From Rhynchobatus australiae (lineage: Eukaryota), in contig JAUZTB010000107.1 of NCBI GenBank assembly GCA_034780895.1, positions 56,238,984 to 56,302,949 of the forward strand: DNA of 63,966 nucleotides, in the 5' to 3' direction. The translations under genes and the position numbers were made by a program. The notes below the pieces were generated by a model. It saw only the letters and a list, made by a program, of their open reading frames with translations, had not been told where the DNA came from and did not search any database. This document shows positions 30,750 to 62,958 of this stretch, piece after piece (the stretch's first letter is position 1; each line of letters starts with the position of its first letter).

Positions 30750-30853
30750 AGGAGAAAAAGCCCACACTACAGGAGATAGCCAATCAGAAAGGAATTGTCT
30801 GCAAGGCTCAGGGTTGGAAAGTACATCTCTGTGCTGCGCAACTCATGCAGTTG
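30750..30853 (+). CDS. SAP130: SAP130 coding exon (EEKKPTLQEIANQKGIVCKAQGWKVHLCAAQLMQL)
   Basis: ORF 30689; gtag| and TTG|gtaagt; phase 1 to 0; matches human LQEIANQKGVSCRAQGWKVHLCAAQLLQL. Confidence 0.97.
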
Positions 30854-32509
30854 GTAAGTGAGATGAAGACTAAGTGTTGGTGCATATTGCGAGGAGTTAT
30901 ATATATGCCACTAGGTGTCTTTGGTCCAATTTTACAGTCATTGGTTAAGTATGATGTCTGTCTTTCACAGAAATTTTCAAAAAAATGGCGTCATTTATTG
31001 CCAAAATACCAGTAGCAATCTCCACCCGTGTCTTATGAAGCAGGTGTTGTGACTATCCATGAAGATGTTTTCTATCACGAGAAGTTCTCGTATTTTCCTA
31101 TTTGTACAACATGCAAGGTCATTTGGCTCATCGAGCCCATGCTATCTTTCAAAGCAGCCTCATTTGTTCCATTCCCCTGTAACTTTCTCACTTGTGCTCG
31201 ATGCATCTATCCTTAAGAATGTCAGAACAGAAATCTGGAAATTGTTTTGTGTTTCCTGAAAAAGATTTTTCTAACAAGCAATGTGCACATCCTATTAAAC
31301 TGACCTTTTAAATAAATTGAGATGTGATTCTGCAGGAAGTTTAAAAAAATTTAGAAAATTGAGTGATTTTGTTAACTAGCATTGAAGATTTAGTAAATAA
31401 GGGGCTGGAAATTCACTTGCATAATTTGGAGGCGATCTACTGTCAGGTCAATTTCCAAGTGTTTTCCTTGTTCACTTAACCCCACCCCTAACTGCTTGAT
31501 TCAGATTTTGTTAATGCCCCCAGTCCCATTACTACCCACCATCCCTGTGCCTGATCCCTACGTCTCTTCCCCTGTTGTTGTCCAGTCTTTCCTAACAACC
31601 CCCTTCTCCTGTGATACACAGCCTATCTGATTAGCTGTGCTACATTCTCCATGCTAAAGGCAAATTTTCTGTGTACGCTCTCATATGCAGGGCCTATTCA
31701 TTTGCTCCCATTGCCTTGGTGTACATATGCAATGGAATATCGCTGCTTGGAGGATTTGTATGAAATTGCTGCAAACCCCCTCACATCTACACTTTAAGCA
31801 TTTCCTGGCACCAATGAATTTCTACGCCCTGGTATTTACTCCTCTGAGATGTTTTGGTGTGACTTGTTATCAGAATAAGACTGACATCACTATGACTGTA
31901 GGGATGGTGCTGAGTTTGATTTCATGCTGGAAACACATTCTGAGTATTCTAGTATACTCGATACCAAATAGAGAAGTCATGCTGAAATACATTTGAAACT
32001 GAGTGCTAGCTGAACATAGCTGTAATGGTACTGGATACCCTATACATCATTATCTTCGGGAAGCTCTGGTGCATTGTTCATGCTGACCTCTGAGTCAGTG
32101 GTGTCAGCAAAAGCCAAATTCTACTTGCTTTGTGATGTTAGATGCCTGACTGATGATTACATGAAATCATTTATAGTTGAGATCACAAACCAATCTATAA
32201 AATGTGTGGCAGCAGTTTGCGTATAAGTTCTCGATCTGTGGTGGCGTATGATGGTCGCTCAGGTAATGGAAATGTTCCCTTAAAGAATTCACAAATCGCT
32301 ACCCTAAAAGTTGAGGGTAGCCTACTACTCTAAAATTTTCTCTGGCGGAATTTATGTGGAACAGAAATAAAGTAAATCAGCAATTTTTTTCATCTAGTAT
32401 TTCTTGATGCATACAACGAACAGCGATTATACTGCTTTACATTATGGTCCAAACTCCTGCCCCAGCCCATAATGCATACCTGTTTTTAATTGATTTTAAA
32501 CTAACAAAT

Positions 32510-32990
32510 GAGTTGGAAGCAGGATGAGGCCATTTAACCCCTTAAACAGCATTGCCATTCAATTAGATCATGGCTGATTTGATTGAACCTCAACTCACAT
32601 TCCTGACTGTACCTGGTAACCTTTCATCTTCTTACTCATCAAGAATCTATCTACCTTTGCCTTTAAAAATGCAAAGACAAATTCTACTGCCCTTTGAGGA
32701 AGAGTTCCAAAGACTCGCTGCCCTCCAAGAAAATAAATTTCACTTCATCTTTGTGATAATTGGCTAATATTTTTAAACAGTGACCCACAAGATGAAATGA
32801 CCTCTCCAATTCATCCTGTCAAAACCCCTCAGGATGTAGTAAGTGTCAATCAAGTTGCCTTTCACTTTTGCGCTCCAGCAGATATTGGCCTGGTCTGTCC
32901 AACCTTTCCACTTAAGACAACCTGCCCATTTGTGATATTAGTCCATTAAACCTCTGAATGACTTCCAATGCATTAACATTCTTTGTGAAC
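32510..32990 (-). mobile_element. CR1 3' fragment
   Basis: ggaagcaggatgaggccatttaacccc...gccattcaattagatcatggctgat tail. Confidence 0.7.
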
Positions 32991-33007
32991 AGTATCATTA
33001 TTTAACA

Positions 33008-33230
33008 GAGACACGAGGTTCTGCAGGTGCTGGCATCTGGAGCCACACACCCAAAATGCTGGAGGAACTCAGTGAGTCAGGCAGCATCTATGGAGGGAAA
33101 TAAACAGTCGATGTTTTGGGTCGAGACACGTCATCAGGACTGGAAAGGAAGAGGGCAGAAGGCCCTGATGAAGGGTTCCAACCTGAAATGTTGGCTCTTT
33201 ATTTCCCTCCATAGATGCTGCCTGACCTTC
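33008..33230. mobile_element. Palindromic Penelope pseudo-LTR-derived element (inverted pair)
   Basis: tgctggaggaactcag...gcagcatctatggaggg and its inverse ccctccatagatgctgcctgacc; similar copies at about 4360-4520, 19234-19380, 37495-37570 and 63855-63966. Confidence 0.75.
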
Positions 33231-35234
33231 ATGTGTCGATCGTTATGTAACGGTACTCCAGGTGTGTTCTTAACAGTGCCCTTTATAACATCCTGTCTAC
33301 ATTTGTATTAATTTCCCCTTTGCAATATGATTACTTTTACCAATACACCAACGTCCCTCCTATCTCGGTGCTTTGTAACTTCTCACCATTTAGATGTACT
33401 TTATTTTCCCTGCCACCTGTTGGGGGTGGAACTGTGGTGCAGCAGTTAGTGCTGCTGCCTCACATCAACTTGGGTTTGGTGCTGACCTTTGATGCTGTCT
33501 GTGTGGAGTTTGCACATTACAGTGTCACAGAGTTGTACTGCACAGAAGTAGTCCTTCCAGCCCACCCTCTATGCCCAAGTATCCTAACCCCACCTACCAG
33601 CTTTCTATGCCTTGGTGATTCAAATGTTCATTGACATTTGTTGTGAGAGTCTCTGCTTCCACCACCTATTTGGCCAGTGGTTCCAGATCCCAACCAACTT
33701 CTGGGTGAGGGGGAAGTTTCTTCCTCAGATCCCCTCTAAACCTCCTACTCCTTAAACCTTTGCCCTCTAGTTTTGGACAGCTGTGAGGAAAAGTGTCCAC
33801 TATCTTTCCTATCTGCCCATCCTCTCTATTAGACCCTGTCCCCTGGCTTCCTTTGCTCCAGTGTCCACCCACATCACAATGTTTGCTGGTAGGTTAATCA
33901 GCTGTTATAAATTTTGCCACCTACCTACATTAAGGGCAAGAATCAATTGGGAGTTGATGGGTAGAGGAGGGAAAATAAGTTGCAGGACCACAGGGAACCG
34001 ATGAGAAGGGAAATGGAACTGATGGCATTGCCATGCTGGGAGTTGTCATGGGACCAATGGATTGAATGTTCACCTCTTATGTCTTAATGGGAAAAAAAAT
34101 GGACAATGTCACATTTTTTCACATGATATTCCACTGGCCAGATCATTCCCCACTCACTTAACCCATCTATATCCCTTTGCAGCCTCATGGCCTCTTCGCA
34201 GTGAACTTTCCCACCTCCTTTGTCATTGGGAAATCTAGCAACCGTAACTTTGGTGCCTTCATCCAAGTCATTTATAGTGATGATGGAAGTTTGGAAAGTA
34301 AAGTGTACAATACTAATTCCAGATAGCAAAGAGAGCAGTAGCACAAAAGGAACCATTGCATAATACTCAAAGTTTACTTAAATCAATCAGTATGGGATAA
34401 GAGAGACACTAGAGAAAGATGAAGATTCAGAGCAATGGCAGGAGTGACCTTGAGCCCATGAGCAGGAAGTAGAGGGTGATTCAGGAGCAATGGAATGGAC
34501 AGTTTCAATCTTAGTGTCATGATCAAAGGTGACAGAGGAAGGTCGCAGAAGCTGGTACCTTTGCTCTCTGTGATCCTGAAGTAAATGATAATTTTTGTCA
34601 AAGGAGGGGGAAGACTGTTGGTGGGCGTGTCTCCATGTATTGGCTATGCTTGTCCTTGGTGATGGAGGCTACGGCTTTGGGAGGTACTGTGGTCTCTGAA
34701 ATAACTGCTGTGCAGTTTGTAGATGGTGCTCACTGCATCCACAGTGGTTAAGGTGTGAACATTCAGGGTGGTGGATTCATCCTGATTACTGTTTGACTTT
34801 TGCAGTGTTGAAGCTGCATTAATCCAGACAAGTGAAAAATATTCCATCACACTCCTAACATACCTGCTTAGATGGTGAGAAGGAAGACCCATGCATAACT
34901 GGTCCAGCTGAGTTTCTGCTTGGTGGTGACTCATAAAATGGCAGTTTTATGCTGTTAAATACCAAAGGCTTTTTGGGAAAGACCTTAGCGTTTGTTGGTT
35001 GAATGCTACTTGCCACTTCAAGCCTTTGATTGAATTTTGACAAGGTCTTGGTCATGCAGGCATGGGCTCCATTTCCTGAGGAGATGTGAATACAATTGAA
35101 TGTTATCTGGTCAGTGAATGTCCCCACTTAACAGAAGAAAAATCAGTGGGATGTTTCTTTCCACATTAAAGGCACTATAGAATTATCTGTTGATTTACTT
35201 TCAAGGCTTGTGCCTTAATCATGGAGTTAAGAGT

Positions 35235-35520
35235 TATGGAACATAGAACATTACAGCACAGTACAGGACCTTCGGCTCATGATGTTGTGCTGACATTTTA
35301 TCCTGCTCTTAAAATCTATCTAACCCTTCCCTCCTACATAGCCCTCCATTTTTCTATCATTCATATGGCTATCTGAGCCTCTTAAATATCTCTAATATAT
35401 CTGCTCCCACAACCTCTGCTGGCAGTGCATTCCATGCACCCATCACTGTGTAAAAAAAAACTTGCCTCTGACAACTCTTTATAACGTCTGCCAATCACCT
35501 TAAAATTATGCCCCTAGTTA
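35235..35520 (-). mobile_element. CR1 3' fragment
   Basis: gaacatagaacattacagcacagtacagg...ggcagtgcattccatgcacccatcact. Confidence 0.75.
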
Positions 35521-35738
35521 TACCAGAGGGTTCCTAGAATTCATAGTGCTTAAGAAATAGGGTGGGGCGAGGGCAGGAAATTGAAACCAAAACAAATTCG
35601 GTTCATTTGTCTGCTAACTGGTTATCTTAATGTTCAAGTATTTACTCATTGCAAATTACTAGGAAACATTTTGAAATTTGAGCTCAGTCCTTCACACTTT
35701 TCTGTTTCTTTCCCTAAAACCTTAACTGAACTCTACAG

Positions 35739-35852
35739 ACTAGCTTGGAACATGACGTGTACAACAGATTGGCTTCATTACAGGAAGGGCTGATTCCAAA
35801 GAAGAAAGCAGCTGCAGATGATGACATGCATCGAATCAATGAACTGATCCAG
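35739..35852 (+). CDS. SAP130: SAP130 penultimate exon (TSLEHDVYNRLASLQEGLIPKKKAAADDDMHRINELIQ)
   Basis: tacag| and CAG|gtatgt; phase 0 to 0; matches human TNLEHDVYERLTNLQEGIIPKKKAATDDDLHRINELIQ. Confidence 0.97.
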
Positions 35853-36269
35853 GTATGTGGATGTCCTGTATAAGCAGACAGTGGAGGTGGCATCTCAGCT
35901 ATGTGTTGCTGGGAACAAGCTAAGTACTGAGCCATAATATGTACAAGACCACATCACTTTCTAGTTTCTCTCCAGTTGGTGAGTGAGAATGAGGACTAGA
36001 ATCATGCAAGTTGCTGGCAAGGGAAGAATTTAAATATGTTATTGCAACTGACTGGAGAGCCAGATGTATTTTATTGGAACTGTCTAATTGTAGACAAAGT
36101 CTCCAGATCTGGGATGAATTGGTTGATCTCCCTGTGGTAAAGCATTTGCAAGGTAGGATAATGGACACCAGCAAGGAACCCTACATCTGGGACTTTGTAG
36201 AAGTGAATGAGAATTGTATTTCACTGTGATTACTTCCTGCCCAAGCTAATACATAGGGAATTCTATAAT

Positions 36270-36630
36270 ACTGCTGCTACCCACAATGGTCAAACACTTT
36301 GGCTTGTAATCCAGTGGTTTGGATTGATGGTCCACAGGCAGATGTTCAAATCCTGTCGTGGCAGCTGGAAAACTTAAATGCAATTAATTAATTCTAGAAT
36401 TAAGTAGCTGGAATTGCTAATGGTAAATGCACAAAAAAAAGGCATAGCATGGCTGTTTGAAAACCTAACTGGTTCACTACATCCTTTAGGGAAGGAAATC
36501 TGCCGTCCTCACTTGGCCTGGTCTGTCCTTGGCCCATGAGAATGTGATTGATTCTTAACCATCCTCTGAAGTGGCCAAGCAAACCAAGGCAATGATTTAC
36601 TGTCCTTGCTGATGTTGCCTACATCCCACA
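36270..36630 (+). mobile_element. Chondrichthyan tRNA-derived SINE
   Basis: gttcaaatcc B-box; ctggttcactacatcctttagggaaggaaatctgccgtcc core; gccttgctgatgttgcctacatccc-type tail; related copies at about 7480-7660 and 13890-14200. Confidence 0.65.
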
Positions 36631-36770
36631 AATGTTCAAGTATTTACTCATTGCAAATTACTAGGAAACATTTTGAAATTTGAGCTCAGTCCTTCACACT
36701 TTTCTGTTTCTTTCCCTAAATCCTTAACTGAACTCTACAGACTAGCTTGGAACATGACGTGTACAACAGA
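36631..36770 (+). repeat. 140-bp direct duplicate of 35629-35768 (intron end, acceptor and first 30 nt of the SAP130 penultimate exon)
   Basis: Direct comparison: identical except one A/T difference (35719 vs 36721); offset 1002 bp. Confidence 0.95.
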
Positions 36771-37589
36771 ATGTAGAACAATGTAGTGTACGACAATGTA
36801 GTGGCTGAGTGTGGCAACTAGTTTTAATGACATGGTGGCAAGTTACAAATCGGAATTAAGATTATTTGAGGGAAGAAAAGGGAAATTGCTACAGTTAACT
36901 TCTTCAAAAAAACTTTGGCATCAGATTTTTTGTCAAAACTAAACTGATTCACTGATGTCCTTTAGGGAAAGTGGCTGTTTTCCCCATCTGGCCTATACTA
37001 GATTGCAGTGTTTATCGCCTTTCCTCAGCCATAGCCTAGTGCGATGCTCTGATATGTCAGACCACTAAAGGAGACCTATCTGCAACTTCAAAATGAACAT
37101 TAAATTTTGGGCACCAGGATGAAAAAATATTGAGGGGCTTGTGCCAGGTAGTTGGATAGAATGGAGCAGGGATGTTGCGGTTGGTGGATGAGTATACGTG
37201 CATTCATTCCAGTTCGGGTAAAAGACTGTAACTTTAATAAGATAGTCTTGCACTGTGAACTGGATGCCCTATGGTCCCAAATTTGACAACAGATAATGCT
37301 TCCAATGTATTTTTTTAAAGAAAAGGCAAAATCAAAGTGTGCATTAATTATTATTGCATCTACTATGTACAATTAGTATAAAATGGTGTGTATTCTGGAA
37401 AGGTTCCACTGGATTACAGAGAAAAATTTGGGAGATACAGGCCATTGTGCCAAACATGATTATCCTTTGAATTTTTTTAAAGAAGAGTAAATATGAAACA
37501 AAGCAAAATGATGGAAACGCTCAGCAGGTCAGGCAGCATCTGTAGAAGGAGAAACAGAGTTAATATTTGAGGAGCGAATCAAAAGGCAT

Positions 37590-38410
37590 TCAGTGAGGTG
37601 CCACATAAAAGGTGGCACAAGATGTTGTTGAGGGCAGCACATTGGCAAAGAGAGAGGACTAGCCAGCTGTACTGGTGGGTGCCTGAGGCGGCATAGCTGG
37701 GGCCTCACTACCTATGATTTGAATTGCGGGACTTAAGTGCAGTTTGTCCAAGTATACTAATGACTCAGAAGTGGAAAAGTAAACAAACAGTAAGGTTGAA
37801 TATAGACATGGGCAAAAATACAGCAGATAGAGTAGTAGGGAAATGTATGTACTTTGGGAAGAATAAAAAACAATATTATTTAAATTACATATGAGTGTTC
37901 AGAAACTCATGAAGGAACACAAAAATGGGATGCAAGTAATTAAAGAGACATGCTAGAAGAAAAAGGTTGACTTTTGATGCAAAGTGCTGAGGCATGAACT
38001 CTACTACAGCCATGTGGGGCTTGAGATATCACATCTAGGTAACTTGATTCCTGAGAATTGTTTTATGAAGAACAGATTGAGAATCTAGAAGAATGAGAGG
38101 TTGAGATGGTTTAAAATTTTGAGAAGGTTCTTCAGAGGGTATACTGTGAAGATGTTTCACAGTAGGAGACTATAAAATCTTGGGATAAAAATATTGATGA
38201 GGTATTTCTTACATTTGCAAATCTTTGAAGTTCACTATTCCTAGATGGATGTGGATGCAGTTGTTAAAGATATTCATGGCTGAGATGGAAGCACAAAACA
38301 TACAGGAGAACTGAGGGTTAAGGGGACTAGGTCAAAGATCAGAACCGCTCTGACCTTATCGAATAGAAGAAGGAGCTTGAGGCAGTACAGCGTACTATTG
38401 TTATTTTGTT
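37590..38410 (+). mobile_element. Highly decayed CR1 fragment
   Basis: aaggcattcagtgaggtgccacata (KAFDKVPH-like), tccaagtatactaatgac (SKFADD-like), 3' tail. Confidence 0.6.
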
Positions 38411-39028
38411 TTTAAGTCCTGTATTTATGGTAGTGCACAACATTTTAGTGGGGAGGGACAGAAGGACAATTTGAAATACTTCAGAGGCCCATTCATGAGG
38501 CAATTACCATGGTTAGTTAAGAGAATTTAATTTTTAAATATATGTACAGCTTTACAGATTAAATTGAAGTTTAATTATGCAATAGAATCCCAACTGTTTC
38601 TCGGCTGCTTTCTCTCCCAGCTGTCTCTTCCACTGACCACTTCCAACTTTCTGACAGCCTCTCTCTCCTTTTTGTTTTGAAGCACTTGAGTCAGAAGAAA
38701 CAAATAAGTGAACGATCTAAAACTAATGATAGAGCGGGGCACTAGGACCTTTGTGGAACCCACAGAGCAGACCATGTGTGCCGCAGTGTCACGGTACCGG
38801 AGCCTCTTCCCGATTGGACTATTCAAATAAAACTGTTGCCCCTGACCAATCAACGTGGGAACATTAACCCGTCTAGCATTAGGACCCTACAGAAGCACAG
38901 CGCCCAAAGCAGCCAATGAGTGAGAGCAGGCTGGTTTGGCCAGTCCCGAGTCAGCTGTGAGCCGTTTGGTGTCGGTGAAACAACTAATTTCTCACTTGTA
39001 ACACTATTCTGTGTTGCTCTATTCGCAG

Positions 39029-39187
39029 GGGAACATGCAGCGCTGCAAACTGGTTATAGACCAGATCACCGAGGCCAAAGATACCATGATGAAGGTTCTG
39101 GATCACAAGGATCGAGTTCTAAAACTCCTCAACAAAAACGGCACCGTCAAGAAGGTGTCCAAATTAAAGAGAAAAGAAAAGTCCTAA
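39029..39187 (+). CDS. SAP130: SAP130 terminal coding exon (GNMQRCKLVIDQITEAKDTMMKVLDHKDRVLKLLNKNGTVKKVSKLKRKEKS*)
   Basis: cgcag| acceptor, phase 0, TAA at 39185-39187; matches the human C-terminus. Confidence 0.97.
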   Translation, partial: GNMQRCKLVIDQITEAKDTMMKVLDHKDRVLKLLNKNGTVKKVSKLKRKEKS

Positions 39188-50200: not shown

Positions 50201-52156
50201 ACTGGTAGACCTCAGCATATGATGGAAGTAGTGGTAATGGATGAGCTGATAACCGGTATTTGAAAAAAATTGGTTTTGAAAAAAATTTGAAAAAAAAGTT
50301 TAAAGTTATTCAATCTGGAATGGGATGTATCCAAGGCTGCTGAAGGAAGTAGAGATGGTGAAGGTTTGACACAATCTGCCAATCCTCCTTAGATATAGGG
50401 GAGTTGCCAGAGGACTGGAGAATGGTAAATGTGATGCATTTACTAGAAAGGGGTATAAAAACACACCAAGGGAGGAGACAGAAGATAGACTTTCTGGCAG
50501 AGATGTAAAAGTTGTAAAGGAACAGAGGGACTTGGGTGTACATGTTCCACCATAAATAAGCATCAGTGTGGTCATCTCAAGGACAAGCTAGGGAACTACG
50601 GGCCGTTGAGCCTAACATGAGTGGTGGGAAGGTTACCCTTTTGCAGAGTGCATCTTTATAGTCAAGGAGGGCTTTGTGCCCAGTTTGGTCCTGGCAGAAC
50701 AAAGGATTCCACACCTTTGCTGAACTTTCCCACTGTTTTCGAGAGTCTCATCAGTCATTAGTGCAGAATAATTCCACTNNNNNNNNNNNNNNNNNNNNNN
50801 NNNNNNNNNNNNNNNNNNNNNNNNNNNNNNNNNNNNNNNNNNNNNNNNNNNNNNNNNNNNNNNNNNNNNNNNNNNNNNNNNNNNNNNNNNNNNNNNNNNN
50901 NNNNNNNNNNNNNNNNNNNNNNNNNNNNNNNNNNNNNNNNNNNNNNNNNNNNNNNNNNNNNNNNNNNNNNNNNNNNNNNNNNNNNNNNNNNNNNNNNNNN
51001 NNNNNNNNNNNNNNNNNNNNNNNNNNNNNNNNNNNNNNNNNNNNNNNNNNNNNNNNNNNNNNNNNNNNNNNNNNNNNNNNNNNNNNNNNNNNNNNNNNNN
51101 NNNNNNNNNNNNNNNNNNNNNNNNNNNNNNNNNNNNNNNNNNNNNNNNNNNNNNNNNNNNNNNNNNNNNNNNNNNNNNNNNNNNNNNNNNNNNNNNNNNN
51201 NNNNNNNNNNNNNNNNNNNNNNNNNNNNNNNNNNNNNNNNNNNNNNNNNNNNNNNNNNNNNNNNNNNNNNNNNNNNNNNNNNNNNNNNNNNNNNNNNNNN
51301 NNNNNNNNNNNNNNNNNNNNNNNNNNNNNNNNNNNNNNNNNNNNNNNNNNNNNNNNNNNNNNNNNNNNNNNNNNNNNNNNNNNNNNNNNNNNNNNNNNNN
51401 NNNNNNNNNNNNNNNNNNNNNNNNNNNNNNNNNNNNNNNNNNNNNNNNNNNNNNNNNNNNNNNNNNNNNNNNNNNNNNNNNNNNNNNNNNNNNNNNNNNN
51501 NNNNNNNNNNNNNNNNNNNNNNNNNNNNNNNNNNNNNNNNNNNNNNNNNNNNNNNNNNNNNNNNNNNNNNNNNNNNNNNNNNNNNNNNNNNNNNNNNNNN
51601 NNNNNNNNNNNNNNNNNNNNNNNNNNNNNNNNNNNNNNNNNNNNNNNNNNNNNNNNNNNNNNNNNNNNNNNNNNNNNNNNNNNNNNNNNNNNNNNNNNNN
51701 NNNNNNNNNNNNNNNNNNNNNNNNNNNNNGACTTTGCTGAACCTTCCCGTTGTTTTCGAGAGTCTCATCAGTCATTAGTGCAGAATAATTACACTGTTAA
51801 TGAATAGATAAAAATTCCAATCTTCTAGAGGGCGGGTGGTTCAATGACTATGTAGCTGAGAAAAGTTTGTGACGAACTCAAAGCCCTGGGATCGTGTCTG
51901 ATGGGGCAAATTAGCATTCCCCATTGTCTCACTTGGCTGAAACATATCCTGATTGTTTTGCAAAGCTACCCCTTTAACTGTACCTGATTAATGCTTGGGG
52001 CTACCTTCACATTGATGTCTTGCTGTTTCAGTTTCATTAATTCCTGGGGAAAAACAATGGTCTTAACAGATAACCAATAGTCTTAACCCCTTGGTTACAT
52101 CCAGCCATTGGTAGCTGTTGCAACAGGGAAATCATTGATTGCTTTTCATCTTACCA

Positions 52157-62762: not shown

Positions 62763-62958
62763 TCTCCCCAGGCCCTCCGGTCTCCGAGGTCACGGTGGCC
62801 GCCGGGATACCGGCGCCTCCCGAGGTCCTCCGAGCTCGGAAATCACGGATGGCCGCCGGGATACCGGCGCCTCCCCAGGTCCTCCAAACTCGGAAATCAC
62901 CGGTGGCCGCCGGGATACCAGCGCCTCCCCAGGTCCTCCAAGCTCGGAAATCACGGCG
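62763..62958. repeat. GC-rich 54-bp tandem repeat (3 full units plus a partial one)
   Basis: ggccgccgggatacc[ga]gcgcctccc...ggtcctcc...ctcggaaatcac; units start at 62797, 62851 and 62905. Confidence 0.92.

Follow-up and report, generated by a model that had tools for sequence, protein, structure and literature searches.

A recent 152-nt insertion in SAP130 of Rhynchobatus australiae carries a second splice acceptor and is probably a relic of templated repair

Partial and intronic exon duplications are reported in more genes than are duplications of full exons (4-7% of vertebrate genes; Exonize, PMC12343006). In the templated insertions (TINS) attributed to polymerase theta, reiterated copying of the flank is the described scar (PMC7165422, PMC5068794); the first tracts of pure Pol-theta insertions are reported rarely to pass 10 bp (PMC7165422), and only 2-3% of the worm insertions reported were templated from more than 1000 bp away (PMC5068794). 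Germline template-switch insertions of less than 2 kb, and extended break ends joined by TMEJ, have been reported from human hotspots and worm mutants, mostly as side-by-side duplications (PMC7615360, PMC7368036). Finally, cryptic last exons and pseudoexons are defined from transcripts as intronic, lineage-restricted acceptors followed by a stop, and such last exons are reported to be common in vertebrates (bioRxiv 10.64898/2026.01.30.702498; PMC8819188). Here, we describe an insertion in the SAP130 gene of a cartilaginous fish that shares features with each of these classes and departs from each of them.

The insertion lies in a window of 63,966 nucleotides, the whole stretch of Rhynchobatus australiae DNA that was analysed (assembly GCA_034780895.1, contig JAUZTB010000107.1, positions 56,238,984 to 56,302,949); coordinates below are window positions, and all features of the gene and the insertion lie on the forward strand. 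Exons at 30750-30853, 35739-35852 (the penultimate coding exon, 38 codons) and 39029-39187 (the last coding exon, 52 codons and the stop) encode consecutive parts of the Pfam SAP130_C domain (profile positions 300-333, 334-371 and 372-406, respectively), and the best named homologues of the encoded protein, among the matches listed, are SAP130 proteins of rays and sharks. The donors at 30854 and 35853 are both phase 0 and of the U2 type, and join in frame; an exon of about 350 nt is apparently also present in the gene. The last two exons match Narcine SAP130 at 100% identity, and the same 90-residue tail is kept in 98 of the 100 proteins with the penultimate-exon motif among the matches listed; judged from these alignments, the tail is strongly constrained. 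It overlaps the part of human SAP130, residues 836-1047, that is reported to bind mSin3A and HDAC1 (PMC10765799, citing earlier work). Two further features of the window were observed in passing. Three CCAAT/ATTGG words fall within 105 nt of the last intron (38813-38917), about 110 nt before the last exon, a cluster seen after the fact at a window density of 3 per kb that could reflect chance or a promoter-like element; downstream of SAP130, a GC-rich imperfect tandem repeat (62764-62956; 87% over 86 nt) lies in long stop-free frames.

In the intron between the last two exons, 36631-36770 is a copy of 35629-35768 that differs at one position (A at 35719, T at 36721), as the 140-bp duplication was first annotated; no N lies between the two. 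The template consists of the last 110 nt of the preceding intron and the first 30 nt of the penultimate exon, so that the copy contains 110 nt of intron, an acceptor AG at 36739-36740 and 10 codons, followed by ATG TAG at 36771-36776. It is displaced from its template by 1002 nt, with 862 nt between the two segments, and a search of the whole assembly with 35629-35853 matched only these two places. Directly upstream lies an old interspersed repeat (36460-36586; at least 39 genomic matches elsewhere at 71-91% identity). The locus is an intronic partial exon duplication, exon sequence having been copied into an intron of the gene to which it belongs. It resembles the class catalogued by Exonize in that part of a coding exon has been duplicated into the gene's own intron, but differs from the class as reported in that just 30 of 114 exon bases were copied, the acceptor is included and the donor left out, the copy is very young, and the empty site is resolved (PMC12343006). 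The literature on SAP130, on duplicated acceptors and on partial exon duplication, searched without combining SAP130 with shark or ray, yielded no publication on this locus.

Relatives and further individuals, to which the initial annotation had pointed as informative, both bear on the age of the insertion. An empty site is joined across in all three of the other species covering it (organisms B, C and E; coverage of organism D and of run X10 does not reach the site). Organism B (run X2) joins 36633 to 36786 and hence is without the 152 nt at 36634-36785, a joint that can slide by 2, while in organisms C and E (runs X8 and X11) the joint runs from 36635 to 36795, with 9 different letters in between. 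Within the carrier species, organism A, two sequencing runs (X1 and X3) derive from different samples and studies, X1 possibly being the source sample of the assembly, and X3, a second sample, carries the insertion. Across this intron, organism B diverges from the carrier by about 3% (38 differences over 1286 nt), and the copy differs from its template at 1 position in 140 (95% range 0.02-4%). Because organisms B, C, D and E all have A at the mismatch position in their single copy, the T at 36721, which is common to the assembly and the second sample of organism A, is derived in the new copy. On these sequence comparisons the insertion is species-restricted and recent, and arose on the branch to organism A after its split from B. 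Loss in the relatives instead of gain in A was also considered and is rejected by parsimony, since the empty sites of B, C and E can be aligned with one another.

Comparison with the empty site accounts for both ends of the copied segment. At the left, 5 nt (36631-36635) are common to the empty site and the start of the template, a 5-mer found at about 0.2% of window positions. At the right, the flank of the empty site (36786-36795) is identical at 9 of 10 positions with the template at 35757-35766, a match that ends 2 nt before the template's end; of 119,572 window positions on both strands, just 3 unrelated ones match this flank at 9/10 or better, and when the letters of C and E at the site are used, the match with the template end rises to 11/12 in a hand comparison. 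Between the copy and the right flank lies a 15-nt filler (36771-36785) that is re-copied from that flank: an exact 11-nt direct repeat of the flank extends into it (36778-36788 is identical with 36793-36803), and the 15 nt, which include the stop codon, derive from one word of the flank. The final joint has a microhomology of 2 nt. The initial annotation had stated that the repeat continues into ATG TAG; those letters do stand at 36771-36776, but they belong to the filler and not to copied exon. Because the ends and the filler mark microhomology-guided template switching, the boundaries of the insert were likely set by DNA homology rather than by splice function, and DNA homology together with re-copying of the flank suffices to explain both the choice of the copied segment and the stop that follows it.

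These features suggest a series of steps by which the insertion could have formed. A DNA end at about 36633 would have used the 5-nt match 1 kb upstream for priming and copied a further 135 bases, up to the point at which the template resembles the other end; there the copying strand would have returned to the right flank, one further slip on that flank would have generated the filler, and the ends would have been joined through 2 nt in a Pol-theta-like finish. The assignment to a class of repair, microhomology-guided templated insertion, is well supported, whereas the participation of a Pol-theta-like enzyme is uncertain, because pure Pol-theta insertions do not typically contain a 140-nt tract drawn from a template 1 kb away. 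With TINS the locus has in common the junction microhomology (5 nt at the left, 2 nt at the final joint and 9/10 at the return point), the repeated re-copying of short tracts of flank, and a mismatch in the copied tract; typical TINS tracts, however, are far shorter and nearer than the main tract here, and the insertion resembles TINS at its right junction only. The long first tract better fits an end extended by another synthesis step and then joined by TMEJ (PMC7368036, PMC7615360). The germline insertions reported in those sources resemble the present one in their resection-range size, their several templates and the microhomology at their ends, and differ in being mostly side-by-side duplications, where the SAP130 copy is dispersed by 862 nt. 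Some 350 nt upstream (36282-36285), about 37 nt of B and C are missing in A, with a 4-nt overlap at the B join; this loss looks like a microhomology-mediated deletion and may have arisen either independently of the insertion or together with it.

How the spliceosome would treat the copy was assessed with a crude splice matrix built from this gene's own 10 junctions, two of them possibly misassigned, in which AG-free zones and branch sites are not scored. On that scale the original acceptor core scores 1.0, the lowest of the 10, and the donor of the same exon 9.1, the highest, which suggests that the penultimate exon leans on its donor. In exon definition, recognition of an exon is helped by the exon's own donor. 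The copy has left that donor behind: the best GT within 300 nt of it scores 4.0 on the crude matrix, below 9 of the 10 true donors, and only at 407-645 nt downstream do GT sites reach 5.7-7.4, inside the true-donor range. Nor does its acceptor score stand out, as 37 of the 241 other AG sites of the same intron score at least as highly. The copy nevertheless duplicates a working acceptor, including the AG-free zone of 49 nt, the candidate branch sites and a pyrimidine tract that stands back from the AG as in 35629-35738, and the stretch is more conserved than its flank: organism C differs at 2 of the 110 copied intron bases vs 13 of 131 in the upstream flank, among the differences listed (p=0.014), and regulatory sequence may have been copied along within these 110 bases. 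Some leaky use is therefore plausible. Weighing these signals, we infer that the copied acceptor, deprived of the original exon's donor, would serve fewer than about 5% of transcripts; selection would probably act against heavy use, and the persistence of the insertion in two samples is consistent with use being low. The mismatch T also creates a U12-like branch motif, TCCTTAAC, at 36721, close to the AG. The end of a U12-type intron is characterised by such a branch motif close to its AG. A U12-type intron was considered and rejected, none of 13 RTATCCT matches lying at a mapped exon end and both upstream donors being of the U2 type. Overall, it is probable that one germline repair event with template switching gave rise to the 152-nt insertion and that the spliceosome skips it in nearly all transcripts; the copy is most likely an inert intronic relic.

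Were the copy used, the consequences would be those drawn in the initial annotation, since both upstream donors are phase 0 and ATG TAG follows the 10 codons, so that splicing would be in frame and end at 36776. Joining 35852 to 36741 is predicted to replace the last 52 residues by 11, and joining 30853 to 36741 the last 80 residues by a single Met; the last coding exon would be lost in either case. We regard as unlikely, yet deserving of real weight, the reading in which the same repair scar carries an acceptor that is used measurably but without regulation, slightly lowering full-length SAP130 to a tolerated degree. Nonsense-mediated decay (NMD) requires a stop more than 50-55 nt before an exon junction. 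Candidate donors at 37148 and 37218 would define pseudoexons of 407 and 477 nt, placing the stop 371 and 441 nt upstream of the junction, and would lead to NMD, while a donor at 36809 would leave 32 nt and give a 68-nt pseudoexon that escapes it; alternatively, an intronic poly(A) signal (candidate hexamers ATTAAA at 37099 and AATAAA at 37862) would turn the copy into a cryptic last exon. That the copied acceptor is complete and in frame with both donors, and that lineage-restricted cryptic last exons are reported to be frequent among vertebrates (bioRxiv 10.64898/2026.01.30.702498), speaks for such use. The scarcity of partners speaks against it, in that no donor within 300 nt scores well on the crude matrix and the hexamers are near background (5 AWTAAA between the copy and the last exon vs about 3 expected from the window density by hand estimate). 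Additionally, the human pseudoexon catalogue reports only two terminal cases, in both of which the normal last exon had been displaced (PMC8819188), whereas here it lies 2.3 kb downstream. The copy shares with cryptic last exons and pseudoexons an intronic, lineage-restricted acceptor followed by a stop, but it is described here from DNA, where those are defined by transcripts, and it reproduces a real acceptor where those reported derive from latent or transposon-derived sites.

The initial annotation went further and proposed a decoy, poison or alternative terminal exon, possibly one being born. It is quite improbable that the copy has been recruited into regulated use, be it as a poison, decoy or alternative last exon, and now adjusts SAP130 dosage or trims 52 or 80 C-terminal residues. 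In that account a repair accident would have supplied a ready-made second acceptor that already serves a regulated exon trimming the Sin3/HDAC-binding tail, an exon caught at birth, which we likewise give little credence. Truncation would matter, as the lost region lies in the reported mSin3A/HDAC1-binding part (PMC10765799), and the sole mismatch is derived in the copy, falls inside the acceptor region and is common to the second sample; one substitution, however, cannot show selection, and 1 in 140 fits neutral drift or copying error within the 3% divergence between A and B. The ends and the stop, which originates from the flank filler, are already explained by DNA microhomology and re-copying, and the copy offers no donor within 300 nt that scores well on the crude matrix, while the poly(A) hexamers downstream are near the background density. 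It does present the functional type of acceptor followed by a stop that a last exon calls for, but its absence from B, C and E runs counter to the cross-species conservation by which poison exons are recognised. None of the 100 motif-bearing SAP130 proteins among the matches listed, none of which is from this species, ends at or repeats the motif, and no annotated truncated isoform was found among the best 120 of 684 matches (100 with the motif and 20 without, again none from this species).

Two further explanations concern the origin of the letters themselves. Reverse transcription of the insertion from SAP130 pre-mRNA, by retroelement machinery or RNA-templated repair in place of copying from DNA, would account for the sense orientation, the location in the same gene and the adjoining interspersed repeat, and an unspliced template would include intron; this origin is nonetheless very improbable, as neither a poly(A) tail nor a clean target-site duplication was found at the insertion, and microhomology at two ends together with a cis template 1 kb away suffices. 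The physical reality of the insertion, and with it the initial view that the copy is not a simple assembly echo, can be judged from the two runs of organism A. In run X3 (depth 2.9), one 466-nt contig (36446-36911) crosses both junctions with 0 differences; in run X1, contigs are present at both junctions and break off where the repeat begins and ends, on either side of each copy, and depth is 16.8 over the 140-nt repeat vs 4.5-8.4 in its four flanks. X3 does not cover the original exon. X1 collapsed both copies, so that in the carrier species the A at 35719 is documented by the assembly together with the four relatives. Because X1 and X3 cannot both be the source sample, the insertion is genuinely present in the DNA. 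An assembly artefact has a negligible probability: the assembly does echo, since the 329 kb of non-N DNA sampled contains 5 local pairs that are nearly identical, but all 5 straddle 100-N gaps, whereas the SAP130 pair has no gap, has both junctions in independently assembled contigs of two samples, and faces a clean empty site in relatives. Those five pairs, of 54-85 nt (in sampled stretches L015, L022, L027 and L042), are assembly echoes that could mislead, and a pair in the present window (50715-50778 and 51732-51795; 94%, across an N block) may be a similar echo. Across the 40 stretches of 10 kb that were sampled (329 kb non-N), no gap-free local pair of at least 50 nt at 95% identity or more was found; young copies of this kind are therefore not dense, although the sample is too small for a rate.

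The probable repair scar in SAP130 is thus a clean and well-resolved germline templated insertion in a cartilaginous fish, of a kind already known and part of ordinary genome turnover. It illustrates that a duplicated acceptor can exist within an essential gene, and it provides a small natural test of exon definition, with two near-identical acceptors 1 kb apart, one with a donor and one without. Regulated use of the copy, if true, would matter more, since the tail it would remove overlaps the Sin3A/HDAC1-binding region and loss of Sap130 is reported to be lethal early in mice (PMC10607600, review).
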